From Rhynchopus sp. YZ270_cl-10 (taxonomy: Eukaryota): a DNA stretch of 64,000 nucleotides. The first letter of the stretch is position 1. Each line of letters starts with the position of its first letter. This document shows, one piece after another, positions 3,968 to 27,430 of the stretch. The notes under the pieces are model-generated. The model saw only the letters and a program-made list of their open reading frames with translations. It ran no database searches and was not told the origin of the DNA. A program made the position numbers and the translations under genes. The stretch is taken from NCBI GenBank assembly GCA_964035575.1, contig OZ037843.1:1178001-1242000 (forward strand), read 5' to 3'.

Positions 3968-6067
3968 ATGGGGTACCTATGGGAAGCGTTGTCTCTGGAC
4001 GGGACTGTGGGAAGAGCGGAGCGGAAGAAGCGTACCATCCTGCTGCTGTGCTGTGCATCGTGTGCGCTGTTCACACTCTCACGCTTCGCATCTACGTTGC
4101 AGAAGCGGCTGGACCGTGACCTTGAGATCGACCTGTTCTCGTACATCCTCGTGTTCTGTGCGAACCTGTACCCGGTGGTAGGGATTCTCTGCAAAAGACG
4201 GCTGACCACCACTGCCGTTGTCGCAGCGTTGTATACCATGGCCTTCGGGGTGGTCATGTGGGATCTGGACGCAAGGACCTACAAGGAAACGTCGTGGCCA
4301 TTGCTCGTGCTCGTGGTTGACCTGTTGCTTGTGATGCAGGTGCCTGCACGCTACAGTGTGGGGTTGGTGTGTGTGGCCATCGTGTGGTTAATGTTATTGT
4401 CATTGGATGAAAGCTTCAGGTTTGGTCTGCTCGACCTGCCTGGCCTGCAGCTGCAGGAAGAGCGGAGAAGGCGTCTGACCCGGCTCACATCCTGCGACAG
4501 GCTGCCGTGTGCAGTCGACTTCCCCGCGCACACGTTGTTCATTGGCCTCGGTGTCTTTGTGGTGGACTTCCTCGCAACACGTAGCTTTGCACGTGACGTT
4601 CTGAAGGAGCAGGCGGCCATGCAGCGTACGATCAACACAGTGCAGGACATCGCGTCCCTCCTGGCTGGGTACGACGTGGAAGGCGTGGCACGCATGCTGG
4701 AGGCGCAAGAGACGTTGCTCCCAGAGGAGATGCGCGCAACGCTGCAGACGTTGGAGGAGAACCTGCGGAAGTACCGTCCCTACCTCCCTGCTGCGCTGTT
4801 TGAGGAGGATGAGGTGGACGGTGTGCAGCACACATCTGTGGCACCACCTGGGCTTGAGAGTGAGACAGCAACGATTGTGTTCACAGACATCCGTGCCTCG
4901 ACGTCGATCTGGGAGTGTGCAGCTGATGGGATGCGTGCTGGTCTGAAGATACACAACCGCGTGATGCGTGAGGTGATGCAGATGTTTGGTGGGTACGAAG
5001 TGAAGACGATAGGTGACGCCTTTATGATTGCCTTCGAGACAACAGCAGACGGAGTTAACTTTGCTCTGCAGGTGCAGGAGAAGCTGCTCGCAGCAGACTG
5101 GCCTGCGTCGCTGCTTGAGGATGCACCCATCTGCACACCACAACACTCTCTGTGGGGTGGCCTCACTGTGCGCATTGGTGTCAACACCGGCCCTGTGACT
5201 GTCGAACAGAACACACTCACTGGACGAACAGACTACTTCGGACACACTGTCAACGTTGCGTCACGCCTTGAGAGCACATGCAAGCCTGGTGCTGTTGCTG
5301 TTCCCTCTGACCTGTGGACATCTGACTGTGGTGCGTGCAGTGGTGTTGTGGGTCATTCGGAAGCACTTGACCTGAAGGGTGTGAGCGGTGCGACGTTTGT
5401 GTGTCCTGTGTGGCCTGTGTCGCTTGTGGGCCGCAGGCAACAGCCCCTTTGCGAAGCTCCGGACAACAGAGACGGCCGCTGTGGTGGCGAGTCTGACTCT
5501 GTGTCGATGCAGCCCTTCTTTGGCACACTCGATTCCGTGGCACTGGCCCAGCAGAACCCTGCTCGTTTTCTTGGCACAGTCGGTGTTGCAGATCTTGCAG
5601 TGGGCGACGAGGAACACGTGTCCGCACTGCAGTCCATGAGCAGCGGGCTGTCGACACTGACTGTTGCACTGGACCAGAGTGGCGGCGGCCTGGTGACGCT
5701 GCTTGGCAGCCGTGTCTGCGTGTCGTGGAACGTGACCCGCTCTGCCCCTGCACACATGGAGAACGCGATCCGCTTTGCACAGCGCATGAGTGGTGCGACC
5801 TTGGCAGGTGCAGGGCTTGCAAGCGGGCCTGTGCAGCATGGTGATGTGGGGGCACGCAAGCAGCGCTTTGTGACGGTGATGGGGACAACTGTGCGCCGGA
5901 GCTGGACGCTGTGCGAAGAGGCTGTGCGCGACGGTGTGGTGTGTCTGTTTGAGCCTCCCGAGGGCACAACACTGCCGACTGCACTGGAGCACGTCCTATT
6001 GGCACACAACGCACGGACAGGTGTTTACAAGGTTGTATATCGTACGATCAGAGATAGTGTGATCTGA
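3968..6067 (+). CDS. Membrane class III adenylate cyclase (multi-TM N-terminus, intact catalytic domain, degenerate second cyclase-like domain), 699 aa
   Basis: TIVFTDIRAST (metal Asp1), YEVKTIGDAFM (ATP-specifying Lys, metal Asp2), VRIGVNTGPV, TDYFGHTVNVASRLES (specificity Asp, catalytic Asn and Arg). The C-terminal GLASGPVQHGDVG..VMGTTVRRS domain lacks these residues. Confidence 0.93.
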   Translation: MGYLWEALSLDGTVGRAERKKRTILLLCCASCALFTLSRFASTLQKRLDRDLEIDLFSYILVFCANLYPVVGILCKRRLTTTAVVAALYTMAFGVVMWDLDARTYKETSWPLLVLVVDLLLVMQVPARYSVGLVCVAIVWLMLLSLDESFRFGLLDLPGLQLQEERRRRLTRLTSCDRLPCAVDFPAHTLFIGLGVFVVDFLATRSFARDVLKEQAAMQRTINTVQDIASLLAGYDVEGVARMLEAQETLLPEEMRATLQTLEENLRKYRPYLPAALFEEDEVDGVQHTSVAPPGLESETATIVFTDIRASTSIWECAADGMRAGLKIHNRVMREVMQMFGGYEVKTIGDAFMIAFETTADGVNFALQVQEKLLAADWPASLLEDAPICTPQHSLWGGLTVRIGVNTGPVTVEQNTLTGRTDYFGHTVNVASRLESTCKPGAVAVPSDLWTSDCGACSGVVGHSEALDLKGVSGATFVCPVWPVSLVGRRQQPLCEAPDNRDGRCGGESDSVSMQPFFGTLDSVALAQQNPARFLGTVGVADLAVGDEEHVSALQSMSSGLSTLTVALDQSGGGLVTLLGSRVCVSWNVTRSAPAHMENAIRFAQRMSGATLAGAGLASGPVQHGDVGARKQRFVTVMGTTVRRSWTLCEEAVRDGVVCLFEPPEGTTLPTALEHVLLAHNARTGVYKVVYRTIRDSVI

Positions 6068-6347
6068 GTGCTTCCGCACCACAGTACACACGATTCTGAC
6101 TCAACTCCAAGCAGAAAGTGCTGTGATCGGGTTATGTCCGTTGACGTTGCATTTCGTTTCTTTGCTTTCTTTGGACCAAAGGACGTCCTCATGAGCCCAC
6201 GCATTGTATTGTATGTCTTTCTCTGGTGACTAAGCACGAGAGGCTTAAGTTCATCATAAGATTTTCTTCTCGTGTGTCTGCCTCGGGCAGCCCTCCCCCA
6301 ATATCTTTCACACCAGTGTCCGCGAAAGTATGTTTTGCTGGTTTGTC

Positions 6348-6656
6348 GACGTATGCTGGGGTGCGACGTTGTCTGCAACCGTCTTTGCTTCAGCGACGCT
6401 GAGTGCGAACACGACCTGCGTCTGCTTCCGTGCAAGGTGGAGGTTGCTCGAGACTGCGGCACAGGTTGTGGCTGAGCTGGTTTCGAAGGAAGAAGAAACT
6501 TCAACTGCAGCAGACGAATGGATATACCAGATAGGCGGGAAGAAGCACTGGAGGGGTGACATGCTTGACGTCGCTCTGGCTTGGGCAGCGGGGTTGGCAC
6601 ACCAGTACACGCAGTCCCTTCCGGGACGTGCAGTGTTGTGTGTTGCTACATTCGGC
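6348..6656 (+). pseudogene. 3' fragment of the pseudo-cyclase family
   Basis: GACGTATGCTGGGGTGCGACGTTGTCTGC... nearly identical to 10794 onward, with a frameshift at about 6458 and deletions. No 5' part. Confidence 0.9.
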
Positions 6657-6949
6657 AATAGGGGGTTCGGGCAGAGACTCTGGGTCTCATTGGCATCTGT
6701 TTCTCAAGACTTTCCGGTGTAATTCTACTCTTTTTGTGGGTTGCCGTTTCAACGTGCCTCCCCATTTTCACACAACACAAAAAATAAAACCGACTTTATT
6801 TTTAGTTTGCCACCAAAAACAACACTTCAATCATCTCAATCCCCCACCCACTGCGCATATCACCCACATGCCACAACACACGACACACATCCTATAGTCT
6901 CTTCGATCTCTCTCTCTCTCTCTCTCTCCCTCCCCCCTTTTCCCACAAA

Positions 6950-7453
6950 ATGACACCACTAGAACATTTACGCGATGCGCTTGGCAAGACACGAGAGTCT
7001 AGCGAGGTGAGTAGCCTGCCTGGTGCGTTGGGTGTGGGTAGTGCTGTGCCGACTGTGCGGAAGTGTGGCAGCGATGTCCATGTTGAGTTTGTCACTGCAG
7101 GTATTGCGCTTGTGTTCCGCGTGACGCAGGCGAGCTCTGAGCTCCATGCAGTGTGGTGTCATGGGGCTGGGGTTGAAGGCTTTTCGCGTTGCTCACAAGA
7201 GGTGCTCTTCCCGGCCTGCTCAGGGCGTGACCTCGTGGCAGAACACAAAGAGCCGACACGAAAGGGCGGCGGCAAGCCCGCAGGGCACATCTGGTTTGAG
7301 TACACACCTTTCAAGCAAGCAGGCCTGAGCGCGACGTTCGAGATGCAGACAACCTCGTGGGAAGAGCCTGAAGCACCTCTACGCAGTGTAGTGTACTTTG
7401 CCTCAGAGAAGCAGAAGAAGGAGGAGAAGGAGGAGAAGGAGGGGAGTACATAA
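6950..7453 (+). CDS. Hypothetical protein, 167 aa
   Basis: ATG follows a pyrimidine tract and CCCACAAA. Composition is like neighbouring genes. Globular-looking sequence with EPTRKGGG..IWFEY motif and a charged tail. Confidence 0.65.
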   Translation: MTPLEHLRDALGKTRESSEVSSLPGALGVGSAVPTVRKCGSDVHVEFVTAGIALVFRVTQASSELHAVWCHGAGVEGFSRCSQEVLFPACSGRDLVAEHKEPTRKGGGKPAGHIWFEYTPFKQAGLSATFEMQTTSWEEPEAPLRSVVYFASEKQKKEEKEEKEGST

Positions 7454-7889
7454 TTGAGGGGGGTTTTGGGCTCCAGCACCGCCACTGCAATGGAAGAGAA
7501 GACGCATGAAATCCACGTGGTCATCCATGTGGTTTGCCTGCACTACCGACAAGGTGAGGGAGCACGCTACCTCGTTCGCAGTGGAATAATGACTCACCGT
7601 TGTTCACGGATTCAGCCGCTGCACATAATGTAGCACAACGCTGGAGTTTTGACTGAGCTCGACTTATCTTCGCTCAGCAATCTTTGCGCACATTGAGGGA
7701 CCTACTTCTCAAGCAAGCTTTACCTCTGATGTTTCTTGATCACTGTGTATGGATGAACAGAATTTGACACACGTAGCTTTCCCCCTTCCACCTGTGCACA
7801 TTGTACCTTTCTTGTATCTTCCCTCCCTCACCACCCTCCCCCAAAGCCCGCACAGCACAGCAGGTACAAATTCAATTCAAACACAAAAC

Positions 7890-8927
7890 ATGGATCTGCA
7901 TGTGGTGTTTTCCGACGAGACACACGTGATTGAGGTGGCTCTGGCTGACACAACTGCGGACATGCGGCGGAAGGTGGCGTCTGCAGTGGGGCTGCCTGAA
8001 GGCAGCTTTGACATGAGCTTCGGAGGCGAAGTGATGGGAAAAGGAGCAGACGTGACGCAGCTGAGTGCTGGTAACACGATTGAGGTGTCGTTGACGATGA
8101 AGTTCGAAGCTGTGGCAGCGCTTCGTGCATTGGGTGAGGCAGACCTGACGTCCGAGAGGTTGAAGGAGGTGAGGGATCCTGAGGTGGCGCGTTTGCTTCT
8201 GCAGGCGGAGGTTGCGACTGTCATTCCTGATGAGTTCCTAGAAGGTTCATCGTTAACGCGACTTGATCTGAGTGCTGTGTCGACTGTCACGCGGATTGGC
8301 GGCAACTTTCTCTCCGGATGCAGCAGTGTAACAGCTCTCGACTTATCTTCACTCACCACTGTCACGCACATTGGGTACAACTTTCTCTCCAGATGCAAGA
8401 GTTTGACAGCTGTTGACTTATCTTCACTCGACAGCATCACACACACCGGCGACGGCTTCCTCTCCAGATGCTGGAGTCTCACAGCCCTCGACTTATCTTC
8501 ACTCAACAGGCTTGAGTGGATCGGAGACGATTTCCTAAAAGAATGCAGCAGTCTAACAGAACTAAATTTAACTTCTCTCAACAGCATCACACATACCGGG
8601 GACGGCTTTCTCTCCGGATGCTGGAGTCTCACAGCTCTCGACTTATCTTCACTCAACAGACTTGAGTGGATCGGTGATGATTTCCTGAAAGAATGCAGCA
8701 GTCTAACAGAACTAGATCTGTCTTCACTCGACAGTGTTATGCACATTGGCAAGGCGAACTTCTGCGAGGGTACAAACTTACAAACCATCCGCCTCTCTGG
8801 GTGCAGTGCTGTTGCGTTACGCGCTGTGAAGGAGGCCAACCTTAAGGTTGTGCCGGAGTCCCGTCCGAAACGGAAGCGAGACGAATCGCCTGACGAAGAC
8901 TGCAGGCGACTGAGACTGTCGCAGTGA
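7890..8927 (+). CDS. N-terminal ubiquitin-like domain + BspA-type (25-aa) leucine-rich repeats + basic NLS-like tail, ~345 aa
   Basis: MDLHVVFSDETHVIEVALADTTADMRRKVASAVGLP (beta-grasp pattern). Repeats LTxLDLSSLxxxxxIGxxFLxxCxS. RPKRKR near the C-terminus. ATG at 7890 after ACACAAAAC. Confidence 0.88.
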   Translation: MDLHVVFSDETHVIEVALADTTADMRRKVASAVGLPEGSFDMSFGGEVMGKGADVTQLSAGNTIEVSLTMKFEAVAALRALGEADLTSERLKEVRDPEVARLLLQAEVATVIPDEFLEGSSLTRLDLSAVSTVTRIGGNFLSGCSSVTALDLSSLTTVTHIGYNFLSRCKSLTAVDLSSLDSITHTGDGFLSRCWSLTALDLSSLNRLEWIGDDFLKECSSLTELNLTSLNSITHTGDGFLSGCWSLTALDLSSLNRLEWIGDDFLKECSSLTELDLSSLDSVMHIGKANFCEGTNLQTIRLSGCSAVALRAVKEANLKVVPESRPKRKRDESPDEDCRRLRLSQ

Positions 8928-9433
8928 CGTACCACGATACGGTGTGTGCCGGGTTGCACGACCGGCTGTGAAGGGTACAGCCTAGGCTAGGTCCGTCCGA
9001 AACAGAAGCGAGACGAATCACATCACAAAGACCGCCAACCGCACCGCGACACTTGCAGTAAAGGATCAGCCTTTGGGATTAGCACAGAGCAACAGCATCA
9101 GTGCAAGAGGGCCTCCTTGATCCAGCTGCAGACACACGGCTCACACCAAACTATTCCCTACTGTCAGTCGCTTTTTAAGCCAGTCACGATCACAAATCGT
9201 CGTTAGTTTGCAAAGGGCGAGAAGAAAGGATCCTCATATAAAAATAGGGCGGGGCTGCAGGGTTTCATAAATTTCACCCAACACCCGGCAGGTTTTCAAA
9301 AAAAGACTCCCTTTTTCAAGTGATATTTTCCGACTGCGACCTTTTGCACCAACCTCTCGAAACCCACGATCCCTTCCCAGCCTCCACACCACTTACGAAG
9401 GCAGGAATACACCTTTACACACCACAGTGCACA

Positions 9434-11149
9434 ATGGGCTGTCTCGAGCGTGCACTCTCGCTTGACGGGACACTGGACACGCATAGCAGACGTATACGAA
9501 AGCTTTACTTCATCTATAGCTGTGCGTCCTTTGTGGCCTCGTGTGTCTTCGTCCTGCTAGAAGTGTCCTCCTTCCGTGGGAGCTACGTCCTTCTGGCAGG
9601 TATTGCCTGCACTGTGTTCTCCAGCTTCTGTTCTCTGCTAGTCATTCTGTTAAAGTACGAACTGACCACGTTCGTCATGGTATCAGTCGGCGGACTGTAC
9701 GCTGTTGCGCTGCTGGCCTGTGACCTGAGTGCGCGCACAGAATATTTAGTTGTCTGGCCAATGATGGTGCTTTTGGTGGACTATCTCCTGGTATTGCAGC
9801 TGCCTGCACGGTACAGCACAGCTGCCGTGGTGTGCACACTGGTGTACATGTTTGTTATTGCTGCAGAAGAATCGTGGAGGTTTGGTCTGTTCGACATACC
9901 CGGGCTCATGCCTCAAGACCGTCGACGTTCCTACGCAGATAGCCTGGGTGACTGTGATGTGCTGCCTTGCAAGCAGAAGGGAGCTGTGTCAGAGCTTTTG
10001 GGTGCAGCATCCGTCTTCGTCCTTGACTTCATCGCAACGCGAAGCTTTGCACGTGATCTCCTGAAGGAGCAGACATCAATGCAACGCACAATCGCAACAG
10101 TGCAGGATATCGCCTCGCTCCTTGCTGGCTACGACGTGGAGAAGGTGGCGGAGCTGCTGGAGGAGCACGGTGGTGAGCTGCCTGACGGGATGACGACAGC
10201 ACTGCGGAAGTTGGAGCAGAACCTGCGTGTGTACAAGGCGTACCTCCCGAAGACGTGTCTGCCGTTTGAGGACGAGAAGGACGAATGTGTGGAACCTGGT
10301 GGTGGGCAGGATGGTGCTGACAGTGACGACTCAAGCACAGTGTCAGCAGCAACATCGAACACGTCTGCTGCAGTGCAACCCACTTTGTTCCGTGCACAGC
10401 CTCTCCTGCTCTCATCCACAAAGGCAACACTGCTGACACTGAACATCAAAGACACCCTGCACCGCCTGGAGGAGGACAGTGCACGCTTCTCCGACCTCTT
10501 CACAACTGTTCTTCTGAAGACCCTGCAGGCAACAGACAGCAGACGTGGGATGGTGGACGTCTTTGTTGGGGACAGGATCCACTGCTCGTTCAACGCGTCG
10601 AAGCAGTGTGCGTCGCACGCAACCTCAGCACTGCACGCAGCAAGCATGCTCATGAGAGCTGGCCTGGCAGCCTCTGTGAACGTGGGTGTTGCAATGGGGA
10701 CAGTGCTGCGTGGTGACATGGGTTGTGATGTGATGCGCCGCTTCAGCATGGTGGGGACACTTGTGCGTGACGTGCACGGGATGGAACGTGCAGGACGTAT
10801 GCTGGGGTGCGACGTTGTCTGCAACCGGATGTGCTTCAGCGACGCTGAGTGCGAACACGACCTGCGTCTGCTTCCGTGCAAGGTGGAGGTTGCTCGAGAC
10901 TGCGAGGCACAGGTTGTGGCTGAGCTGGTTTCGAAACAACAGAACACTCCCGGTACAGACGAGTGGATGTACCAGATAGGCGGGAAGAAGCACTGGGATT
11001 TGTACAACACAGCAGTGCGTGGGTACCTGCGTGGTGAGAGTTGTGACACGGACGTTGCGAAGGCGTGGGTGGAGGCGGGTGGGAGTGGCACACCAGCACA
11101 CGCAGTTCCTTGTGGGACGTGCAGTGTTGTGTGTTCCTATCTTCGGTGA
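9434..11149 (+). CDS. Membrane pseudo-adenylate cyclase, copy 1 (~571 aa)
   Basis: TM region homologous to 3968-6067 (WPMMVLLVDYLLV, ESWRFGLFDIPGL, CDVLPC, FVLDFIATRSFA, NLRVYKAYLP). Single degenerate cyclase domain (LTLNIKDT, VDVFVGD, VGTLVRDVHGME). Confidence 0.9.
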   Translation: MGCLERALSLDGTLDTHSRRIRKLYFIYSCASFVASCVFVLLEVSSFRGSYVLLAGIACTVFSSFCSLLVILLKYELTTFVMVSVGGLYAVALLACDLSARTEYLVVWPMMVLLVDYLLVLQLPARYSTAAVVCTLVYMFVIAAEESWRFGLFDIPGLMPQDRRRSYADSLGDCDVLPCKQKGAVSELLGAASVFVLDFIATRSFARDLLKEQTSMQRTIATVQDIASLLAGYDVEKVAELLEEHGGELPDGMTTALRKLEQNLRVYKAYLPKTCLPFEDEKDECVEPGGGQDGADSDDSSTVSAATSNTSAAVQPTLFRAQPLLLSSTKATLLTLNIKDTLHRLEEDSARFSDLFTTVLLKTLQATDSRRGMVDVFVGDRIHCSFNASKQCASHATSALHAASMLMRAGLAASVNVGVAMGTVLRGDMGCDVMRRFSMVGTLVRDVHGMERAGRMLGCDVVCNRMCFSDAECEHDLRLLPCKVEVARDCEAQVVAELVSKQQNTPGTDEWMYQIGGKKHWDLYNTAVRGYLRGESCDTDVAKAWVEAGGSGTPAHAVPCGTCSVVCSYLR

Positions 11150-11403
11150 TTTTGTTCCACCCCCTTCATTCAACCCCTGCAGGGTCACAGACCAAGCATA
11201 GTTTTGAACTCGATGTAGAAAGCAAAAGTGTTTATTTTACAACTGATTGTTGCCTAATATTTTCCAATATTTCTGTGGTCAAGAAATTGTCCAATTTTCA
11301 CCATTGACCCCCACCACACCTGGCAGCTCCCACAAAAATACAAATAAGGATCCCCCCTTTTTTCCCCCCCCGCAACCTTCTTTTACCCTTTCTGGGTTAC
11401 CTA

Positions 11404-14483: not shown

Positions 14484-15960
14484 ATGGGCTGTCTCGAGTG
14501 TGCACTGTCGCTTGACGGGACACTGGACAAACAAAGCAGACAAAAACGAAGGCTTTACTTTATATGTTGTTTTGCGACCTTTGCAGCCTCGTCTGCCTTC
14601 TTCCTGATAGAGCTGGCATCCTTCCGTGGGAGCTACGTCCTCATGGCAGGTCTTGCCTGCACTATGCTGTACAGCTTCTATTCTGTGCTAGTCATTCTGT
14701 TAAAGTACGAACTGACCACGTTCAGCATGGTGTCAGCCACTGTTGCGCTGCTGGTCTGTGACCTGAATGCTCGCACTGAGTACGGATACGTCCAATGATG
14801 GTGCTTTTGGTGGACTATCTCCTGGTATTGCAGCTGCCTGCACGGTACAGCACAGCTGCCGTGGTGTGCACACTGGTGTACATGTTTGTTATTGCTGCAG
14901 AAGAATCGTGGAGGTTTGGTCTGTTCGACATGCCCGGGCTCATGCCTCAAGACCATCGACGTTCGTACGTAGATGGCCTGGGTGACTGTGATGTGCTGCC
15001 TTGCAAGCAGGAGAAAGCTGTGTCAGAGCTTTTGGGTGCAGCTACCGTCTTCGTCCTTGACTTCATCGCAACGCGTGGCTTTGCACGTGGTCTCCTGAAG
15101 GAGCAGGCATCAATGCAGCGCACAATCGCAACAGTGCAGGACATCGCCTCGCTCCTTGCTGGCTACGACGTGGAGAAGGTGGCGGAGCTGCTGGAGGAGC
15201 ACGGTGGTGAGCTGCCTGAGGGGATGACGACAGCACTGCGGAAGTTGGAGCAGAACCTGCGTGTGTACAAGGCGTACCTCCCGAAGACGTGTCTGCCGTT
15301 TGAGGACGAGAAGGACGAATGTGTGGAACCTGGTGGTGGGCAGGATGGTGCTGACAGTGACGACTCAAGCACAGTGTCAGCAGCAACATCGAACACGTCT
15401 GCTGCAGTGCAACCCACTTTGTTCCGTGCACAGCCTCTCCTGCTCTCATCCACAAAGGCAACACTGCTGACACTGAACATCAAAGACACCCTGCACCGCC
15501 TGGAGGAGGACAGTGCACGCTTCTCCGACCTCTTCACAACTGTTCTTCTGAAGACCCTGCAGGCAACAGACAGCAGACGTGGGATGGTGGACGTCTTTGT
15601 TGGGGACAGGATCCACTGCTCGTTCAACGCGTCGAAGCAGTGTGCGTCGCACGCAACCTCAGCACTGCATGCAGCAAGCATGCTCATGAGAGCTGGCCTG
15701 TGAACGTGGGTGTTGCAATGGGAACAGTGTTGCGTGGTGACATGGGTTGTGATGTGATGCGCCGCTTCAGCATGGTGGAGTGGATGTACCAGATAGGCGG
15801 GAAGAAGCACTGGGAGGACTACAACATAGTGGTGCGTGGGTACCTGCGTGGTGAGAATTGTGACACGGACGTTGCGAAGGCGTGGGTGGAGGCGGGTGGG
15901 AGTGGCACACCAGCACACGCAGTCCCTTCCGTGACGTGCAGCGTTGTGTGTTACTCCTTT
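14484..15960 (+). pseudogene. Pseudo-cyclase copy 2, disrupted
   Basis: Relative to intact copies: 12-bp deletion at about 14738, 4-bp frameshift deletion at about 14791, 10-bp frameshift deletion at about 15699, and ~207-bp deletion at about 15777. Confidence 0.92.
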
Positions 15961-16622
15961 CAAACCAAGCACACATAACCAGCACCGTTTCGTCTGCTGA
16001 CCCCCATCCACAAAGACCTCTCCCTCCACCACCCTTTTGAACCCGTTGACCCTACCCTCGGAGCAGAGCCATGGGTTTGGATCATTCCTTTCCGTTGCTG
16101 ATCCGGCGACTCTCGCTGACAGTGATGCCCTCCCCACGTGGATGAGCCTCATGCCGAGGGTCTTTCGTTGTGTATGTCCCCTTGGCTGGGATATGTGCGA
16201 GGGTGCGAGAGACGTTATGTGTTCCGTATCAGATTGTTTGGTGGAGGCTGTAACGGCGGCAGTGAGAGAAATGGAGGGGGGTGTATTTTTTCTGGTTTGT
16301 TTCTCTTCTTGCGCTGGCTTTAGTTTCAAGTTATACCACACCCTCTCATCTGAGTCATCAGCCTGCTGATCAGAGTAACTGTTAACGTATCAGCCTTTCT
16401 AGGTATTCTTGAGTCAACCTACGCAAAGCCTTCTCTCGAAAGCTTTTCTGTTGCGATTCTCTTCTATTTGTTCCGGTTTTAGCCTTTTCACAAGTTGTGT
16501 AATATTTGCAGGTACTCTCAGTTTTGTCAGTGTCTCTTCCTTTCCCTTCCCTCTTCAACCAACAAAGATACCACCACCCAGGCCTCAGCCTAACTGGGGG
16601 GTAGGCAGGCCAACACGGATTA

Positions 16623-17299: not shown

Positions 17300-17603
17300 C
17301 AAGGCCAACATCGGCCGAAAAATTACCCAGAGGCCTGCCACCACCCCACCCCTTTCAATTTTCCATTTCCTCTATTCTTCCCATCCAAGCCCTCCCCTAC
17401 CCCACACGAAACACACCAGGTCGCTCAGACTCGCTGCAGGGATGGTTTGTGAGGCCCAATGGTTTCGATCATGCATGATTTGCAGTGACGTGTTACCTTC
17501 TCAAGCTTTCTCTGCAACGAACCGGGGTCACTCCGACAGACCCTCCCATAGAAATTTGGTCTGCTAGGACCCCCCTACCCTTTTCTTTGCCACACCCTGC
17601 CCA

Positions 17604-20600
17604 CACGGCGGGGTCCACACACCCGAGGGTCCGTAAATTTTACGGACCCTCTTTACGGACCCTCAAGTGCGGACCCGGGTCCGTAATTACGTGGTCTAAG
17701 GTGGGAAATCACTGTTTGGATGTGTGACTGCTGGTCGAAAAGCCCTGGGAGCAAACCGAGTGGTACACAGGTACCACATGATAGACCATGATCATGTGGG
17801 CCTATCCCAAGTTACATACCGAAAAAAGTCGTGAGCTCGGTTAGTTGTCAAAGACGTCTTCCACCATGCACTGAGGAGATAATGATCCAACAATTTACAA
17901 GAAAGATTACTTAACCTACTGCTGGAAATTGCCAGGTCGTAGTAACACACAAAGTGCGCCTCCGTTCGGGAAGACCGGATATTCTAGAGACCAAAAAGGC
18001 CTCAAGAATATCTTCCGGTAGTCAAGGTATAACCGAGTGAACGGCCCAAGACCCCCGTGGAGAAGTTAAATGTTGTAATGCTATCAAGTAGAAACTGCGA
18101 ACACTGTCTTACCCTCCTCAATACATGGTGGAATATGTCTTTGACAACAAACCGAGCTCAAGAGTTTTTAAACTTCCCTGAGGGAATGCGAGACGCAAAA
18201 TTTACCACCAGACCCTGTCTTCGTGCACCTTCGGTGCAACGCTGCAGACAGGCCAAACTGCGTTGGACTCAGAGGAATGCCTGCTGTGCAGTGTATCAAT
18301 GAGAACCAAGTCCCAGCAACAAGGGGCGCCTTTTGGCGGGCGTTGTTGAGGGTGTTTGGGGTGCAAAGTTTTCCACAATTTTGATGCGCGGGTACAGAAG
18401 TGTTGTCTTGTTCTTTCATCTTTAGGAATGTAAATGTCAATCGCGTTTAACTACCACTAGGGCTTGTTCAGTGAACCCACAAGGGGTCAAAGGGGGTTGG
18501 TTATCCCATAGCTATCAAAGGTTGTGTCGACCAGGCTAATCCACTATGTTACGCTGTACGTTGTTAAATCCGAAGAAATAACGCTTTAGCAGCCGCAGGA
18601 AGTTTGTTAAAAAGAGTGCCTCACGCTACACAAACCACCACCCGCGATTGACTTAGATGTTATAACAAAGAGAATTCAGAACAAAACAACACCCTGCCCC
18701 ATACACACTAAATTGTCATGCTTCAAGAGCATGCCTGGGCCAAAATTACTGTGACAAAAAGGCAACAAGACCACCCACAAGGAGTGTGAATTGTGCACTG
18801 GTTTTCTGGGGGAACGCAATATTTTCTTGTGTCTAGTCCTCCGCAAGCAGAGGACAGACTTTCCGGAAGGTTTCCAAAGTCGAATTTCTTGCACTAGCTA
18901 TGCTCCCTTGGTTAATGGCTATAGCAGTGACTGACAAAGTGTACCCACCCCCCTCCACCCAGATCTTCGTCCGCAAACTCAGAATAGATTGATGCGGGTA
19001 GATTTTGAGTTGTTGAATGTCGGACCGCGGTGAAGCTTCTCATCGCAATCGCGGGTGCAGTTCAGACTTCACGATCCTGTGATGAGTGTAAATGTGGGGT
19101 GTGATTAAGTTATGGTATACAAACGTAGTAGTCGGGAAAGGTGAGGTTAATAAAAAAGGCTATTTATTGCCGTGAAATAAGATAGATTTTTTCCACGCTA
19201 CAGGTCGAGAGAGTGACCTGCTGCACAAATGGTTCGAGTGAAGCGAGGTGAATTATGTGAAGCAGGTAACGAGCGCCTGTGGAACCAAATAGAAACGTAA
19301 CACTCATCACACGATAAAACCCATGGGAGAGGTTGTGGTGAAACGCACACACCTCCTCGACCTGAGGAGTGGCTCTGCAGCGCGGTTCGTCCCCAGAACC
19401 GCAAGTGTGTTCAAAATGCTTTGTTTCTATTTCCTCCTTCATGTCATGAGGTGACACAAAATGATTGGTGCGTAAAAAAATAGCTATTTAATAGTGTGAA
19501 CATTACGCGTTTATTTCGAGTTGAAAACACGAACAAGTTGAAATATGCGGCATTTTTTTGTCCAATCTTCACTAGTAACTGAAAGTTAAACATAATTACA
19601 TACCTTGTCTTCCCCGTAACCTGCGCCTTCGCTGCTTTTAAGGTGCTTTCTCTGGGTGCCCAGTACCCAGTACCCAGTACCCAGTACCAGTGTCTTCGAG
19701 AACCTAAAAATGCATTTTGTTGAAATTTTCTGGCTGTTTCTGAACTTTTCCCAGCTACTTTTCTGGTCGAGTAGCCGACTTTTCTGATCGAGTAGCTATT
19801 TTCACTTTTCTGGTGTATGAGTAGGTTTTCTGGGTGGGAGACTGGATTCTGGGTACAGTGGTGTGTCTGGGCACCCAGGCACCTGGGTACTGGTGTATTT
19901 TCGGCCCAGGTACCCCGGTACACGGTACACTGGTGTACAAGGAAAAAAGTCGTGAAAAAGCAACCACAGCTCCACATGACAAACACAAAAGTGTCCAGTC
20001 ACGTGGGGCATTCATGCACTGAGGAGATAATGATCCAACAATTTACAAGAAAGATTACTTAACCTACTGCTGGAAATTGCCAGGTCGTAGTAACACACAA
20101 AGTGTGCCTCCGTTCGGGAATACCGGATATTCTAGAGACCAAAAAGGCCTCTTCCGCTGGTCAAGGTATAACCGAGTGAACGGCCCAAGACCCCCGTGGA
20201 GAAGTTAAATGTTGTAATGCTATCAAGTACAAACTGCGACCACTGTCTTACCCTCCTCAATACATGGTGGAAGATGTCTTTCACAACAAATATCCTGTAC
20301 ACAGGTACACAGATACACAGGTACACAGGTAAAACCCGTTAAAATTGTGTGTGAAAGTTAAAAATAGCTATATTTGCATTTTTCGCCCAGCATTGAGGAC
20401 ACATAGGCCCACCAAGGGCAATTTTGTGATGTCAAAAAAATTTTTTTTCGGCCCAAAAATTGACTTGTTTTCGGTAAAACCCACTAAAAATTGTGGTACT
20501 CTAAACTGCGTTTTAGACCCCCACAGATGCTCAAAAGTGCCAAATTTTGCTTTTAATGGCCTCAAATCGTCGAAATTAGCCCTAAACGGGGGCAAAAAAA

Positions 20601-20730
20601 ATTTTCGAGAGTCCCTTTCCCTGGGAGGCTCCGTAATTACGGACCCTAGGGTACGTAATGATACTCCGTAAAGAGGGAGTGTCCTAACATGCCGTTTTAC
20701 GGACCCTCGGGGTGTGCGGACCCCGCCGTG
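17604..20730. mobile_element. 3.1-kb non-autonomous CACTA/CMC-like element
   Basis: CA|CACGGCGGGGTCCACACACCCGAGGGTCCGTAAA ... TTTACGGACCCTCGGGGTGTGCGGACCCCGCCGTG|CA. Subterminal TTACGGACCC repeats. Internal duplication of about 17866-18150 at about 20015-20290. Confidence 0.85.
19299..19458 (-). repeat. ~160-bp dispersed repeat (other copies at about 58110-58279 and 60039-60142)
   Basis: TGTCACCTCATGA..GGAAATAGA..GGTTCTGGGG(G)ACGAACCGCGCTGCAGAG..CAGGTCGAGG..TTTCACCAC is shared by three loci. Confidence 0.85.
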
Positions 20731-21404
20731 CACCAACACCCCACCCCTCCACAGAACAGCCTCTGCCTCATCCTCCCTGCCTCCCTCCCCTTGCGATGTC
20801 TGGGGAGGGGATCGACTGACCACCAAAAGGACAACATACGCAAAGTGCGACACATCAGCAGACACGCCTTCAACAAGGAGAAGGCAGTTTCGACCACGTA
20901 AAGCGGGGGAGAAGCTCAGTTGCAGAAGACGGTGTACACCTCGAGTCGACACTGACCACACAGGAAACCCTGGGGTACACGCAAATCTCACTGGATGTAT
21001 CGTGTGCTGGGAGCAGTGGTCCATCACTTCTGGTTCACCAGTATGTTGAAGCCGCATCCCACCTTCTTGAAAGGGTTCCCTTTTGCTCGCATCCTTTGCA
21101 ACTGAGGAGAGAACATCATACCACCCCCGTCAGGATGATTTGGTGGAAGTAGTTGCGTCAGGCAGTGAAGAACCCTGGGACGAGCTTCGTAGCTTGCCCA
21201 CGGAGGCAACTCCGATACTCCCGTTTGTTGATTGGGTGAGTAGCACAAACGTGTGGACACGACGTCGAAGCTGATTTCTGTAAGTACCCCTTACCCTCCA
21301 GACCTCCGTGGATGGGAAGCCAGTGCAGACCACTCCAAATGAAGCACACACCAACCTCCACACTTACGAAGGCAGGAATACACCTTTACACATCACAGTG
21401 CACA

Positions 21405-23123
21405 ATGGGCTGCCTCGAGCGTGCACTGTCGCTTGACGGGACACTGGACACGCATAGCAGACGCAGACGACTGATTTATTTTATCTTCAACTGTGTGCTT
21501 TGTGCAGCATCGTGTCTGTTTACTGTGATTCAGGCGTTAACCTTTCATGACAGGTATCTGTACTTGGGAGGGATTCTTGCGTCTGTGTTGAACGGTGTCT
21601 GTTCTATTTTAGTCGTGACGTTCAGGTGCAAGCTGACCACGTTCATCATTGTTGCAGGGTGTGTGGTGTACGCACTTGCGCTGCTGTGTATAGACATGAC
21701 TGGACGCACTGAGTACGTATCCATGTGGCCGTTGATGGTTCTTGTGGTGGACTTTCTCTTGGTAATGCAGGTGCCCACACAGTACAGCACAATTGTCGTG
21801 GTGTGCACACTGGTGTATTTGGTCATCATCACTGCAGAAGAAACGTGGAGGTTTGGTCTGCTCGACATACCCGGGCTCGAGTCTCAAGAGCATCGACGTT
21901 CCTACTTAGAGAGCATGGGTGACTGTGATGTGCTGCCTTGCAAGCAGAGTAAAGCTGTTAACCAATTTGGAATTGCAGCATTGGTCTTTGTTCTTGACTT
22001 CATCGCAACTCGAGGCTTTGCACGTGGTCTCCTGAAGGAGCAGGCATCAATGCAACGCACAATCGCGACAGTGCAGGACATCGCCTCGCTCCTTGCTGGC
22101 TACGACGTGGAGAAGGTGGCGGAGCTGCTGGAGGAGCACGGTGGTGAGCTGCCTGAGGGGATGACGACAGCACTGCGGAAGTTGGAGCAGAACCTGCGTG
22201 TGTACAAGGCGTACCTCCCGAAGACGTGTCTGCCGTTTGAGGACGAGAAGGACGAATGTGTGGAACCTGGTGGTGGGCAGGATGGTACTGACAGTGACTA
22301 TCAGAGCACAGTGTCAGCGGCAACATCGAACGCGTCTGCTGCAGTGCGACGCACTTCCTTTTGGTTGCAGCCTCTCCTGCTCTCATCCACAAAGGCAACA
22401 CTGCTGACACTGAACATCAAAGACACCCTGCACCGCCTGGAGGAGGACAGTGCACGCTTCTCCGACCTCTTCACAACTGTTCTTCTGAAGACCCTGCAGG
22501 CAACAGACAGCAGACGTGGGATGGTGGACGTCTTTGTTGGGGATAGGATACACTGCTCGTTCAACGCGTCGAAGCAGTGTGCGTCGCACGCAACCTCAGC
22601 ACTGCATGCAGCAAGCATGCTCATGAGAGCTGGCCTGGCAGCCTCTGTGAACGTGGGTGTTGCAATGGGGACAGTGCTGCGTGGTGACATGGGTTGTGAT
22701 GTGATGCGCCGCTTCAGCATGGTGGGGACACTTGTGCGTGACGTGCACGGGATGGAACGTGCAGGACGTATGCTGGGGTGCGACGTTGTCTGCAACAGGA
22801 TGTGCTTCAGCGACGCTGAGTGCGAACACGACCTGCGTCTGCTTCCGTGCAAGGTGGAGGTTGCTCGAGACTGCGAGGCACAGGTTGTGGCTGAGCTGGT
22901 TTCGAAGGAAGAAGAAGCCCCAACTGCAGCTGACGAGTGGATGTACCAGATAGGCGGGAAGAAGCACTGGGAGGACTACAACATAGTGGTGCGTGGGTAC
23001 CTGCGTGGTGAGAGTTGTGACACAGACGTTGCGAAGGCGTGGGTGGAGGCGGGTGGGAGAGGCACACCAGCACACGCAGTTCCTTCCGGGACGTGCAGTG
23101 TTGTGTGTTCCTATCTTCGGTGA
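21405..23123 (+). CDS. Membrane pseudo-adenylate cyclase, copy 3 (~572 aa; most divergent TM region)
   Basis: Intact ORF from the conserved MGCLERALSLDG start. C-terminal two-thirds nearly identical to copy 1. Confidence 0.9.
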   Translation: MGCLERALSLDGTLDTHSRRRRLIYFIFNCVLCAASCLFTVIQALTFHDRYLYLGGILASVLNGVCSILVVTFRCKLTTFIIVAGCVVYALALLCIDMTGRTEYVSMWPLMVLVVDFLLVMQVPTQYSTIVVVCTLVYLVIITAEETWRFGLLDIPGLESQEHRRSYLESMGDCDVLPCKQSKAVNQFGIAALVFVLDFIATRGFARGLLKEQASMQRTIATVQDIASLLAGYDVEKVAELLEEHGGELPEGMTTALRKLEQNLRVYKAYLPKTCLPFEDEKDECVEPGGGQDGTDSDYQSTVSAATSNASAAVRRTSFWLQPLLLSSTKATLLTLNIKDTLHRLEEDSARFSDLFTTVLLKTLQATDSRRGMVDVFVGDRIHCSFNASKQCASHATSALHAASMLMRAGLAASVNVGVAMGTVLRGDMGCDVMRRFSMVGTLVRDVHGMERAGRMLGCDVVCNRMCFSDAECEHDLRLLPCKVEVARDCEAQVVAELVSKEEEAPTAADEWMYQIGGKKHWEDYNIVVRGYLRGESCDTDVAKAWVEAGGRGTPAHAVPSGTCSVVCSYLR

Positions 23124-23523
23124 TTGTGTTTTATTGCATCAACCTTTTATGTGCACTTTTTATTTGGAAATTGGATGCAGAACATTCAAAAGCTGTTTCG
23201 GGATTCGCCCCGAATTGGAATTGTCAATGTGGCAATCAGGTGCAGGGTGGTTCCGTGCATATCATAAAACCTGGCACCTTCTGTATGTGTCCCAAAACCA
23301 AGAGCGTTATGTGTGAACAAAATGTTTTGAAGGCAGGGAAAATGAACCTTTTTTTCTCTCTTTTTTGACATCTCAGACACCTTTTCTTGCACCCCCTTCT
23401 TTTGTCCAAGTATTATTTTACAGCTGTGCCCTTTTGCAGCACTCTATCAGGCTACTTTTGCCTTCACTACTTCCTCGTCACACACGAAACGCAGGAATAC
23501 ACCCTTACACACCACAGTGCACA

Positions 23524-25236
23524 ATGGGCTGTCTCGAGCGTGCACTGTCGCTTGACGGGACACTGGACACGCACAGCAGACGTATACGAAAGATTTACTT
23601 TATTTTCAACTGCTTGACCTTTGCAACCTCGTCTGCCTTCATCCTGTTAGAGGTGACATCCTTCCGCGGAAGCTACGTCTTTCTGGCAGGTTTTGCTTGC
23701 GCTATGCTGTGCAGCATCTGTTCTCTGCTAGTCATTGTGTTAAAGTACGAACTGACCACGCTCGTCATGGTGTCAGGCGCCGGACTGTACGCTGTTGCGC
23801 TACTAGTCTGTGACTTGTGTGCGCGCACTGAGTATGGATACGCTTGGCCAATGATGGTGCTTTTGGTGGACTATCTCCTGGTATTGCAGCTGCCTGCACG
23901 GTACAGCACAGCTGCCGTGGTGTGCACACTGGTGTACATGTTTGTTATTGCTGCAGAAGAATTGTGGAGGTTTGGTCTGCTCGACATACCCGGGCTCATG
24001 CCTCAAGACCGTCGACGTTCCCACGTAGATGGCCTGGGTGACTGTGATGTGCTGCCTTGCAAGCAGAAGAAAGCTGTGGCAGATCTTATGATGGCAGCGT
24101 CCGTCTTCGTCCTTGACTTCATCACAACGCGTGGCTTTGCACGTGGTCTCCTGAAGGAGCAGGCATCAATGCAGCGCACAATCGCAACAGTGCAGGACAT
24201 CGCCTCGCTCCTTGCTGGCTACGACGTGGAGAAGGTGACGGAGCTGCTGGAGGAGCACGGTGGTGAGCTGCCTGACGGGATGACGACAGCACTGCGGAAG
24301 TTGGAGCAGAACCTGCGTGTGTACAAGGCGTACCTCCCGAAGACGTGTCTGCCGTTTGAGGACGAGAAGGACCAATGTGTGGAACCTGGTGGTGAGCAGG
24401 ATGGTGCTGACAGTGACTATCAGAGCACAGTGTCAGCAGCAACATCGAACGCGTCTGCTGCAGTGCGACCCACTTCCTTTTGGTTGCAGCCTCTCCTGCT
24501 CTCATCCACAAAGGCAACACTGCTGACACTGAACATCAAAGACACCCTGCACCGCCTGGAGGAGGACAGTGCACGCTTCTCCGACCTCTTCACAACTGTT
24601 CTTCTGAAGACCCTGCAGGCAACAGACAGCAGACGTGGGATGGTGGACGTCTTTGTTGGGGACAGGATCCACTGCTCGTTCAACGTGTCGAAGCAGTGTG
24701 CGTCGCACGCAACCTCAGCACTGCATGCAGCAAGCATGCTCATGAGAGCTGGCCTGGCAGCCTCTGTGAACGTGGGTGTTGCAATGGGGAAGGTGCTGCG
24801 TGGTGACATGGGTTGTGATGTGATGCGCCGCTTCAGCATGGTGGGGACACTTGTGCGTGACGTGCACGGGATGGAACGTGCAGGACGTATGCTGGGGTGC
24901 GACGTTGTCTGCAACCGTCTTTGCTTCAGCGACGCTGAGTGCGAACATGACCTTCGTCTGCTTCCGTGCAAGGTGGAGGTTGCTCGAGACTGCGAGGCAC
25001 AGGTTGTGGCTGAGCTGGTTTCGAAGGAAGAAGAAGCCCCAACTGCAGCTGACGAGTGGATGTACCAGATAGGCGGGAAGAAGCACTGGGATTTGTACAA
25101 CACAGCAGTGCGTGGGTACCTGCGTGGTGAGAGTACGGACGTTGCGAAGGCGTGGGTGGAGGCGGGTGGGAGTGGTACACCAGCACACGCAGTTCCTTCC
25201 GGGACGTGCAGTGTTGTGTGTTCCTATCTTCGGTAG
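23524..25236 (+). CDS. Membrane pseudo-adenylate cyclase, copy 4 (~570 aa)
   Basis: Intact paralogue with the same upstream ACACCACAGTGCACA-ATG context. Confidence 0.9.
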   Translation: MGCLERALSLDGTLDTHSRRIRKIYFIFNCLTFATSSAFILLEVTSFRGSYVFLAGFACAMLCSICSLLVIVLKYELTTLVMVSGAGLYAVALLVCDLCARTEYGYAWPMMVLLVDYLLVLQLPARYSTAAVVCTLVYMFVIAAEELWRFGLLDIPGLMPQDRRRSHVDGLGDCDVLPCKQKKAVADLMMAASVFVLDFITTRGFARGLLKEQASMQRTIATVQDIASLLAGYDVEKVTELLEEHGGELPDGMTTALRKLEQNLRVYKAYLPKTCLPFEDEKDQCVEPGGEQDGADSDYQSTVSAATSNASAAVRPTSFWLQPLLLSSTKATLLTLNIKDTLHRLEEDSARFSDLFTTVLLKTLQATDSRRGMVDVFVGDRIHCSFNVSKQCASHATSALHAASMLMRAGLAASVNVGVAMGKVLRGDMGCDVMRRFSMVGTLVRDVHGMERAGRMLGCDVVCNRLCFSDAECEHDLRLLPCKVEVARDCEAQVVAELVSKEEEAPTAADEWMYQIGGKKHWDLYNTAVRGYLRGESTDVAKAWVEAGGSGTPAHAVPSGTCSVVCSYLR

Positions 25237-25705
25237 TTTTGCTGATTCATCGTGGCTAAGGACGCTCAGGCGTGGCTCAGGCGCCCTCGGGAATACTTAC
25301 CCAAGTACGCCTTAGCCACCTCTGAAGTAATAATCCTTTACACACATCACTGTGTTACCAGATAGAATCACGTCGTTCACTCACCCAACCGTGCTGAGAA
25401 ACACCAGACCTTGATCCCATTTTTTATAATTTACTAGAAAGTCATTAAAATTTTGTTCATTTTTCCAGATTGACCCCACCACTGACTGGGATCGGCTCCA
25501 AAACGCAAATAACGGCGTTTTCGCCCGTATTGTTTACACGAAACCCCGTGCAGACTAGCCATTTAATTAATTATTTACCCGACTCCCATTCCTAGTATCC
25601 CGTCTGGAGCTGTGCCCTTTTGCAACACCCCATCGGGCTACTCTTCCCTTCCCAACCTCCACACCACAAACGAAGGCAATACACCTTTACACACCACAGT
25701 TCACA

Positions 25706-27430
25706 ATGGGCTGTCTCGAGCGTGCACTGTCGCTTGACGGGACACTGGACAAGCAAAGCAGACAAAAGCGAAAGCTATTCTCTATCTTTAACTGCTTAAC
25801 ATTTGCAGCCTCGTGTGCCTTCTTCCTGTTAGAGCTGGCATCCTTCCGTGGGAGCTACATCCTCATGACAGGTATTGTCTGCTCTATACTTTTCAGCTTC
25901 TGTTCTCTGCTACTCATTCTGTTAAAGTACGAACTGACCACGCTCGTCATGGTGTCAGTCGGCGGACTGTACGCTGTGGTGATACTGGTTTGCGACCTGT
26001 GTGCGCGCACTGAGTATGGATACGTCTGGCCAATGATGGTGCTTTTGGTGGACTACCTCCTGGTATTGCAGCTGCCTGCACGGTACAGCACAGCTGCCGT
26101 GGTGTGCACACTGGTGTACATGCTTGTTCTTGCCGTAGAAGAATCGTGGAGGTTTGGTCTGTTCGACATACCCGGGCTCATGCCTCAAGACCATCGACGT
26201 TCGTACGTAGATGGTCTAGATGACTGTGATGTGCTGCCTTGCAAGAAGAAGAAAGCTGAGGCTGAGTTTATGACTGCAGCTTTTGTCTTCGTCCTTGACT
26301 TCATCGCAACTCGAGGCTTTGCACGTGGTCTCCTGAAGGAGCAGGCATCAATGCAACGCACAATTGCAACAGTGCAGGACATCGCCTCGCTCCTTGCTGG
26401 CTACGACGTGGAGAAGGTGACGGAGCTGCTGGAGGAGCACGGTGGTGAGCTGCCTGACGGGATGACGACAGCACTGCGGAAGTTGGAGCAGAACCTGCGT
26501 GTGTACAAGGCGTACCTCCCGCAGACGTGTCTGCCGTTTGAGGACGAGAAGGACGAATGTGTGGAACCTGGTGGTGAGCAGGATGGCACTGACAGTGACG
26601 ACTCAAGCACAGTGTCAGCAGCATCATCGAGCATGCTGTCTCCATTTCCGGTGACACGCACTTCCTTTTGGTTGCAGCCTCTCCTGCTCTCATCCACAAA
26701 GGCAACACTGCTGACACTGAACATCAAAGACACCCTGCACCGCCTGGAGGAGGACAGTGCACGCTTCTCCGACCTCTTCACAACTGTTCTTCTGAAGACC
26801 CTGCAGGCAACAGACAGCAGACGTGGGATGGTGGACGTCTTTGTTGGGGACAGGATCCACTGCTCGTTCAACGTGTCGAAGCAGTGTGCGTCGCACGCAT
26901 CCTCAGCACTGCACGCAGCAAGCATGCTCATGAGAGCTGGCCTGGCAGCCTCTGTGAACGTGGGTGTTGCAACAGGCACAGTGTTGCGTGGTGACATGGG
27001 TTGTGATGTGATGCGTCGCTTCAGCATGGTGGGGACACTTGTGCGTGACGTGCACGGGATGGAACGTGCAGGACGTATGCTGGGGTGCGACGTTGTCTGC
27101 AACCGTCTTTGCTTCAGCGACGCTGAGTGCGAACATGACCTTCGTCTGCTTCCGTGCAAGGTGGAGGTTGCCCGAGACTGTGAGGCACAGGTTGTGGCTG
27201 AGCTGGTTTCGAAGGAAGAAGAAGCCTCAACTGCAACGGACGAGTGGATGTACCAGATCGGTGGGAAGAAGCACTGGGAATTGTACAACACAGCAGTGCG
27301 TGGGTACCTGCGTGGTGAGAGCAGTGACACAGACGTTGCGAAGGCGTGGGTGGAGGCGGGTGGGAGTGGCACACCAGTACACGCAGTTCCTTCCGGGACG
27401 TGCAGTGTTGTGTGTTCCTATCTTCGGTGA
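25706..27430 (+). CDS. Membrane pseudo-adenylate cyclase, copy 5 (574 aa)
   Basis: Intact paralogue. Its 3' flank matches that of copy 3. Confidence 0.9.
   Translation: MGCLERALSLDGTLDKQSRQKRKLFSIFNCLTFAASCAFFLLELASFRGSYILMTGIVCSILFSFCSLLLILLKYELTTLVMVSVGGLYAVVILVCDLCARTEYGYVWPMMVLLVDYLLVLQLPARYSTAAVVCTLVYMLVLAVEESWRFGLFDIPGLMPQDHRRSYVDGLDDCDVLPCKKKKAEAEFMTAAFVFVLDFIATRGFARGLLKEQASMQRTIATVQDIASLLAGYDVEKVTELLEEHGGELPDGMTTALRKLEQNLRVYKAYLPQTCLPFEDEKDECVEPGGEQDGTDSDDSSTVSAASSSMLSPFPVTRTSFWLQPLLLSSTKATLLTLNIKDTLHRLEEDSARFSDLFTTVLLKTLQATDSRRGMVDVFVGDRIHCSFNVSKQCASHASSALHAASMLMRAGLAASVNVGVATGTVLRGDMGCDVMRRFSMVGTLVRDVHGMERAGRMLGCDVVCNRLCFSDAECEHDLRLLPCKVEVARDCEAQVVAELVSKEEEASTATDEWMYQIGGKKHWELYNTAVRGYLRGESSDTDVAKAWVEAGGSGTPVHAVPSGTCSVVCSYLR

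Follow-up and report, generated by a model that had tools for sequence, protein, structure and literature searches.

Degenerate class III cyclase-fold receptors in Rhynchopus: a large family related to, and predicted to pair with, active receptor cyclases

The active sites of class III nucleotidyl cyclases lie at the interface of a dimer, to which one chain contributes the metal-binding aspartates and the other the Lys, the Asp or Thr, the Asn and the Arg. Little is known of how diplonemids, which are abundant marine flagellates, sense their environment. In this study, a window of 64,000 nucleotides from Rhynchopus sp. YZ270_cl-10 (assembly GCA_964035575.1, contig OZ037843.1, positions 1,178,001 to 1,242,000 of the forward strand) was analyzed, which holds a gene for a receptor with an intact adenylyl cyclase domain (type A) and an array of genes for receptors with a related membrane part that carry a degenerate cyclase-like domain followed by a tail with the motif EWMY (type B, or pseudo-cyclase receptors). 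The closest described systems are the receptor adenylate cyclases (RACs) of trypanosomatids (ESAG4/GRESAG4; PDB entries 1fx2 and 1fx4). In the excerpts available of PMC4561360, trypanosome receptor cyclases are described as homodimerizing proteins with one membrane helix and a large extracellular domain, and kinetoplastids are said to lack control of cyclases by G-protein-coupled receptors; this leaves open how receptor cyclases are switched off. In a tandem array of Leishmania donovani, rac-B1 negatively regulates rac-A (excerpt of PMC4413820, citing Sanchez et al., 1995); the two receptors represent clades within a single RAC family (excerpt of PMC7719234).

The type A receptor and the RACs are alike in their GRESAG4-type catalytic domain and in forming large tandem families with a variable N-terminal and a conserved catalytic part. 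However, type A has five or six predicted membrane helices, seen as hydrophobic segments in its first 200 residues, and no large ectodomain, and so departs from the single-helix layout of the RACs; furthermore, it has a HAMP-like helical bundle and a second, degenerate cyclase domain (D2). Its first domain (D1) is matched by Pfam Guanylate_cyc (PF00211) at residues 298–448 (E = 5.9e-26) and carries all eight canonical residues (D307, K346, D350, R402, D422, N429, R433 and K470), namely the two metal-binding Asp, the Lys and Asp of adenine specificity, the transition-state pair of Asn and Arg, and the phosphate-binding Arg and Lys; these roles are established class III biochemistry. The preliminary description of this locus, which credited the protein with a complete class III set and a second degenerate domain, was accurate on both counts. 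All eight residues recur in 117 of the 120 best type-A matches. The best PDB sequence match of D1 is 1fx2 (GRESAG 4.1; E = 6.2e-23), the next non-trypanosome entry following at 1.4e-9, and the cyclase homology fold is supported by VIA structure comparison with 1ybt, 2w01 and 1fx4 (Z = 16.9–17.1). By analogy with the trypanosome receptor cyclases, type A probably makes cyclic AMP (cAMP) as a homodimer. In two type-A relatives, P0171 and P0197, the pair of active and degenerate domains is preceded by a solute-binding ectodomain of bacterial type and a single membrane helix, a layout near that of the RACs.

The type-B genes encode four intact paralogues of 570–574 amino acids, with ATG starts at 9434, 21405, 23524 and 25706 and no internal stops. 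They share the membrane module and the helical linker with type A (45% identity over 298 residues, E = 3e-57) and carry the motifs TLNIKD, VFVGD and VRDVHG; in a profile alignment to CyaB these place N at Asp1, V at the substrate Lys, D at Asp2 and R/G at the Asn/Arg pair, in agreement with the shared module, degenerate motifs and retained Asp2 reported earlier. Although a Pfam scan of the type-B proteins gave a match in 0 of the 4 intact window copies, the domain is predicted to have the class III cyclase homology fold: its AlphaFold2 model has a predicted local distance difference test (pLDDT) score of 91.5, a VIA structure match to CyaB (3r5g) aligns 176 residues at a root-mean-square deviation of 2.0 (Z = 20.9), and the top Foldseek matches are all class III cyclases (E = 1e-12). 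The EWMY tail (model residues 195–259) lies outside nearly all of the structure matches. A GGDEF-type activity was considered and rejected, with Z = 8–10.6 as against 20.9 for cyclases and no GG(D/E)EF motif. The structure matches also include PDB 6yii, titled as a class III cyclase-like ATP-binding protein, which is a bacterial precedent for a non-catalytic cyclase fold, known here from its title; no paper on it was found in the literature searched.

The loss of catalytic residues was followed in 127 aligned pseudo-domains, picked for diversity from 270 matches after fragments had been dropped, and 22–94% identical to the window copy. The canonical residue is present at Asp1 in one, at the Lys in one, at the phosphate-binding Arg in none, at the Asn in one and at the Arg in two, as against 118 at Asp2, and no domain has more than two of the six; the Asp1 position is Asn in 115 and the specificity position Ser or Thr in 93. 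The earlier view that the catalytic set is lacking is thus borne out across the family, and judged from the alignment, the type-B domain is probably catalytically inactive. Conserved instead are N24, D62, G66-D67, N74, N103, R123, E138-R139, EWMY and N213 (numbering of alignment A1), and all of these but the last would make a further, non-catalytic role likely, such as docking of an effector or a nucleotide. Another possibility is an enzyme of different chemistry or substrate, working through N24, D62, D67, R68, N74, C79, R123, E138 and R139, since these polar residues are kept over the whole range of identity and the class III fold is also that of uridylate and cytidylate cyclases, of which 7r65, 8jsf and 8jsz are among the structure matches. 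However, the domain has one metal-binding Asp only and no transition-state Asn or Arg, and the pyrimidine cyclases match less well than the adenylyl cyclases (Z = 13.8–16.5 versus 20.9), so that such an enzyme is very improbable.

The type-B receptors had been proposed to be dead paralogues of the active enzyme. In BLASTP, however, the type-B domain aligned to the second domain of the type A protein (residues 567–643, E = 2e-8) and not to the first. hhalign comparison of profiles from the 120 best type-B and the 120 best type-A matches gave 91.6% to D2 and 0.5% to D1, and a deeper profile of the 127 type-B domains gave 97.4% (E = 1.3e-11) versus 4.6%; the latter profile also scored D2 above D1 in 120 of 120 type-A proteins. 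Among known structures, the type-B profile was closest to CyaB, Cya2 and CyaC (E = 3.9e-15 to 5e-12), with GRESAG absent among its 44 PDB matches; we take these kin of type B to be class IIIb and the GRESAG4-like D1 to be class IIId. Because BLASTP and hhalign favor D2 and the best PDB matches belong to class IIIb rather than to GRESAG4, the type-B domain is best regarded, on sequence grounds, as kin of D2 and not as a dead copy of D1, and the earlier proposal was not upheld. Type A itself looks like a type-B gene that took up an active domain between linker and pseudo-domain, after which, presumably in this order, the pseudo-domain eroded. D2 covers approximately residues 533–690; in a single-chain pseudo-heterodimer of the C1/C2 type, it would pack against D1 and contribute the metal-binding aspartates. 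Its predicted structure is unreliable (pLDDT below 50); in the 120 type-A proteins, its positions matching Asp1 and Asp2 are mostly not Asp (Q/H/E and N/S, respectively), and the EWMY tail occurs in 0 of 120. ESM Atlas leads for D2 scored 0.94–0.95, with clusters partly named guanylate cyclase domain, and serve as leads only. Longer fused forms of the second domain were absent among 1564 candidates of 1225–3495 amino acids, which is weak evidence, and a single-protein query of JGI metagenome contigs, sensitive to close relatives only, returned no relative.

The module common to both receptor types suggests how they could meet. Residues 212–491 of type A and 210–545 of the 25706 copy of type B were folded together with ESMFold2, without alignments. 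The complex scored 0.66 versus 0.01 for the best of three controls; the score mark is passed by 51 of 78 microbial and 71 of 105 eukaryotic solved pairs, and by 2 of 108 and 2 of 126 mismatched pairs, respectively. The runs shared at least 67% of contacts, with a partner pLDDT of at least 70. The confident contacts involve residues 3–66 of both chains and 228–229 of type B, with helix 1 of one chain lying on the last helix of the other; they are confined to the shared helical bundle, and none is named between the cyclase domains, which does not show that these stay apart. The heterodimer suggested in the preliminary description is therefore modelled well above its controls, but through the bundle and not at the catalytic interface. 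At 26 interface positions the identity is 0.80 between A and B, 0.80 within A and 0.89 within B, as against 0.61 between A and B outside the interface (119 A and 120 B sequences). The predicted contacts fit a parallel dimeric four-helix bundle directly behind the last membrane helix, as in a HAMP domain, although a third helix takes the place of the connector in the model. The linker is called HAMP-like only, because its position matches the HAMP domain (PF00672) of the relative P0330, where it likewise precedes the YxxYLP element, yet Pfam HAMP gave no match to the A or B linker up to E = 10. Type B is thus predicted, from the complex model, to pair with type A via these helices.

The reading favored here, with a probability of roughly 0.45, is that the type-B pseudo-receptors co-assemble with active type A through the shared HAMP-like helices and silence them. 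An A/B pair would hold one complete domain only: type B would give no Lys, Asn or Arg to the metal site of type A, and its own side would offer Asn and Asp without the phosphate-binding Arg. Both interface sites would therefore be dead or weak and type B would titrate type A, the ratio and the liganded state of the type-B receptors setting the gain of cAMP output. Alternatively, type B may be the metal-binding, C1-like half of a split cyclase, whose Asn and Asp would form, together with the Lys, Asp, Asn and Arg of D1 of type A, a single low-output or ligand-gated site, by which A/B pairs integrate two sensors. Type B indeed keeps metal-side residues (N24 in 115, D67 in 118 and N103 in 96 of the 127 domains) while its substrate-side positions are variable or hydrophobic, and the same asymmetry is known from mammalian C1 domains. 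However, both Asp1 and the phosphate-binding Arg are Asn in type B, and an Asp-to-Asn exchange at the metal site strongly cuts activity in mammalian cyclases; moreover, type B and D1 belong to different subclasses and type A is complete on its own. A split cyclase is accordingly an improbable arrangement.

A description as one active receptor plus an array is true of the window only, as both types belong to large families, here represented by the best 120 matches of each. A search with the whole type-B protein gave 381 matches among 7995 scored candidates, including type-A proteins found via the membrane module, and the best 120 of the 381 all have the type-B architecture; with type A residues 280–699, 295 matches were obtained among 7988 candidates, the best 120 all having both domains. 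Sizes taken from these protein searches are lower bounds, and the matches appear to stem from a single genome. A hand count places 14 type-A and 22 type-B matches, out of the best 120 of each, apparently on the contig of the window itself. The pseudo-cyclase family is at least as large as the active one, and the pseudo-domain alone gave 826 clusters at 50% identity (E of 0.001 or less). Among 134 listed proteins of at least 450 amino acids, 111 have the membrane module of types A and B and 23 do not, with EWMY present in 99 of the former and in 21 of the latter, which have other N-termini. Thirty distant relatives, chosen for long or unusual architectures and not at random, showed N-terminal DOMON–b561–b5, peroxidase–b561–b5, laminin-G, PA and HAMP domains in Pfam, and only 2 of these 30 matched PF00211 at E = 0.01 or better. 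Source names were available for 15 of them: 13 carry the names Diplonema papillatum, D. japonicum, Rhynchopus euleeides, R. humris, Lacrimia lanifica or Artemidia motanka, all of which are diplonemids, one is from Papus ankaliazontas, a free-living kinetoplastid, and one has only the prefix 'Hpha'. With its many clusters, its relatives in six diplonemid species and Papus, and its place behind varied sensors, the pseudo-cyclase is old. In P0288 (Diplonema papillatum) and P0366 (Artemidia motanka), an EWMY-tailed pseudo-cyclase stands behind DOMON, cytochrome b561 and cytochrome b5, or behind peroxidase, b561 and b5. Such b561/b5 fusions are candidate sensors of redox state or heme, with a cyclase domain of non-catalytic type as the output.

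In a FastTree phylogeny of the membrane and linker module (27 A and 67 B rows, sampled, with three drawn A rows having no module), types A and B interleave and the starred branches force at least five changes of label, which fits a swapping of sensor modules between outputs. This could be extended to a combinatorial receptor code of diplonemids, in which active and pseudo-cyclase receptors, hundreds of each, dimerize by one promiscuous HAMP-like bundle and exchange membrane sensor modules by recombination. Two stimuli would then be integrated by a mixed A/B dimer at one cAMP site, with the ancient, Pfam-invisible pseudo-cyclase as the inhibitory (or C1-like gating) subunit; so broad a scheme is unlikely as a whole.

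The pseudo-domain is under purifying selection, with a ratio of non-synonymous to synonymous rates (dN/dS) of about 0.15. In the four intact window copies it shows 14 synonymous and 6 non-synonymous minimum changes on 134 and 397 sites, respectively (ratio 0.14, binomial p = 3.2e-5), and the pooled dN/dS is 0.16; the dN/dS check proposed earlier thus speaks against neutral evolution. The tail gives 0.35–0.38 (p = 0.006), and the membrane module 0.62–0.84 (p = 0.14 and 0.45), which is not distinguishable from neutral. Synonymous divergence (dS) is 0.17–0.42 in the membrane module versus 0.04–0.06 in the linker and pseudo-domain (crude Fisher p = 2e-15), and this drop points to gene conversion of the cytosolic part. 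One could regard the type-B copies as recent duplicates heading for decay and alike by gene conversion only, as two of the six local type-B sequences are broken and the dS of the pseudo-domain is a low 0.058. However, this account is largely refuted by the dN/dS value (p = 3e-5) and by the residue counts, in which distant diplonemid and Papus proteins have the same substitutions, and it is hardly tenable.

Several points weigh against silencing of type A as the role of type B. If type B were only a poison subunit, there would be no need for its pseudo-domain to be conserved across diplonemids and Papus, and type A already carries a degenerate second domain of its own. The active-domain profile matched none of 150 listed representatives of the 826 clusters, and the pseudo-domain stands behind unrelated sensors (DOMON–b561–b5, peroxidase–b561–b5, laminin-G and HAMP) with no type-A partner known there. 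Gene conversion means that the counted changes are not independent events, and it could by itself preserve the likeness of the helix bundles, with no selection for pairing. In addition, the passing score of the complex model may stem from likeness to solved HAMP-type dimers, and the model does not tell which family member binds, as close cousins of true partners pass too. Type B may instead be an independent receptor class that homodimerizes and signals free of cAMP, with the pseudo-domain and EWMY docking an effector or binding a nucleotide and the likeness of the bundles arising from module swapping and gene conversion. The age and spread of the pseudo-domain, older and wider than the local array and found behind several sensor types, argue for such a class, as do the retention of EWMY with and without the membrane module and the higher interface identity within B than between A and B. 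On the other hand, interface residues do not separate A from B, since identity between the two equals that within A, so that co-expression of the two types would make mixed dimers difficult to prevent, and the mixed pair was modelled well above its controls. An independent class is possible but somewhat unlikely as the whole explanation; it is compatible with the silencing of type A and does not exclude it.

The features of the locus are collected in Table 1. The window has a eukaryotic setting of intron-poor genes on one strand, including kinesin, WD40 and leucine-rich repeat genes. The four intact reading frames noted earlier were recovered, but a fifth, broken copy and a 3' remnant of another had been missed. 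The broken copy has deletions of 12 bp (in-frame), 4 and 10 bp (frameshifting) and 207 bp (in-frame); the first two are bridged by a 128-base contig of run X2 (14694–14821, 100% identity), which may be the source sample, and for the last two no bridging was found among the read contigs listed.

Table 1. Coordinates of the type A and type B features in the window.
Feature	Position	Strand	Remarks
Type A receptor	3968..6067	+	699 aa; two cyclase domains, the first intact (class III adenylyl cyclase) and the second degenerate, behind 5–6 membrane helices, a HAMP-like helix bundle and a YxxYLP element
HAMP-like helical bundle of type A	4607..4789	+	Ends in YRPYLP; predicted dimer interface (helices in model; interface residues from complex model; conservation)
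Catalytically complete cyclase domain (D1) of type A	4859..5437	+	GRESAG 4.1 is the closest solved sequence
Degenerate second cyclase domain (D2) of type A	5564..6037	+	Kin of type-B pseudo-domain; without EWMY tail
3' remnant of type-B gene	6348..6658	+	Keeps the last part of the pseudo-domain and the tail; carries deletions
Type B pseudo-cyclase receptor, intact	9434..11149	+	571 aa; pseudo-domain ~10418–10930, EWMY at 10961
Broken type-B copy (pseudogene)	14484..15961	+	Four deletions, two of them frameshifting and two in-frame
Type B pseudo-cyclase receptor, intact	21405..23123	+	572 aa; its membrane module diverges most
Type B pseudo-cyclase receptor, intact	23524..25236	+	570 aa
Type B pseudo-cyclase receptor, intact	25706..27430	+	574 aa; HAMP-like 26339–26521, pseudo-domain 26696–27208, EWMY at 27242

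Other elements lie within and around the array. Between the type A gene and the first intact type-B gene, an open reading frame at 7749–8927 has a weak ubiquitin-like match followed by BspA-type leucine-rich repeats with 75-bp internal repeats. A repeated element at 17865–20830, with an inverted copy at 33535–34785 (33.5–34.8 kb; 90–96% identity) and very deep contig cover in four runs, is likely a mobile element that interrupts the type-B array. Directly after the array, positions 27979–29367 encode a secreted-looking protein of 462 amino acids with a Cys/Asp-rich N-terminal part and leucine-rich repeats. At 608–2650 there is a reading frame of 680 amino acids with approximately seven hydrophobic segments and no Pfam match, flanked on both sides by a 173-bp direct repeat (249–419 and 2649–2821), and at 45019–52181 five tandem reading frames of 359–419 amino acids share a near-identical N-terminal part of ∼80 amino acids ahead of a more variable WD40 propeller.

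A conserved and mostly Pfam-invisible pseudo-cyclase family would provide a concrete and testable layer of control, namely inhibition by mixed dimers, and cyclase counts in diplonemid genomes miss a large class of receptors. The pseudo-domain also marks the output end of other diplonemid sensors, such as the cytochrome b561/b5, peroxidase and laminin-G fusions. No paper on a diplonemid or kinetoplastid pseudo-cyclase family was found in the literature searched, which covers few subscription papers. The main text of PMC10161547, on the D. papillatum genome, has the term 'cyclase' 0 times; the orthogroup tables in its supplements and in those of PMC6366073 may list these genes. The regulatory logic has precedents, and the family and its scale appear to be undescribed in the literature searched.

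Among known proteins, the class IIIb cyclases CyaB (3r5g), CyaC (1wc1) and Cya2 (2w01) and the photoactivated adenylyl cyclases are the best matches of type B in profile (E = 3.9e-15) and in structure (Z = 20.1–20.9); they keep their catalytic residues, whereas type B has Asn for Asp1, is without the Lys, Asn and Arg, and adds the tail with the EWMY helix. The mammalian C1/C2 pair and the alpha/beta pair of soluble guanylyl cyclase resemble type B in having a cyclase-fold partner without part of the catalytic set. However, C1 and the guanylyl cyclase alpha chain keep both metal-binding aspartates and are themselves needed for activity. The silent receptor NPRC is described, in an excerpt of PMC10334801, as a non-catalytic receptor that damps a homodimeric cyclase, but it is without a cyclase domain altogether, whereas type B keeps a domain of cyclase fold. 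The expansions of nucleotidylcyclase III with membrane helices and HAMP in Euglena gracilis, Bodo and Naegleria (excerpts of PMC6366073) resemble the present families as lineage-specific growth of membrane–HAMP–cyclase proteins in euglenozoans; catalytically degenerate members are not mentioned in these excerpts, and type B is mostly missed by Pfam. Leishmania rac-B can serve by analogy as a precedent for the silencing logic, although RAC-A and RAC-B are clades of one family, whereas the silent partner in Rhynchopus has a different, class IIIb-derived domain with an ancient signature and belongs to a family of at least 120 members.

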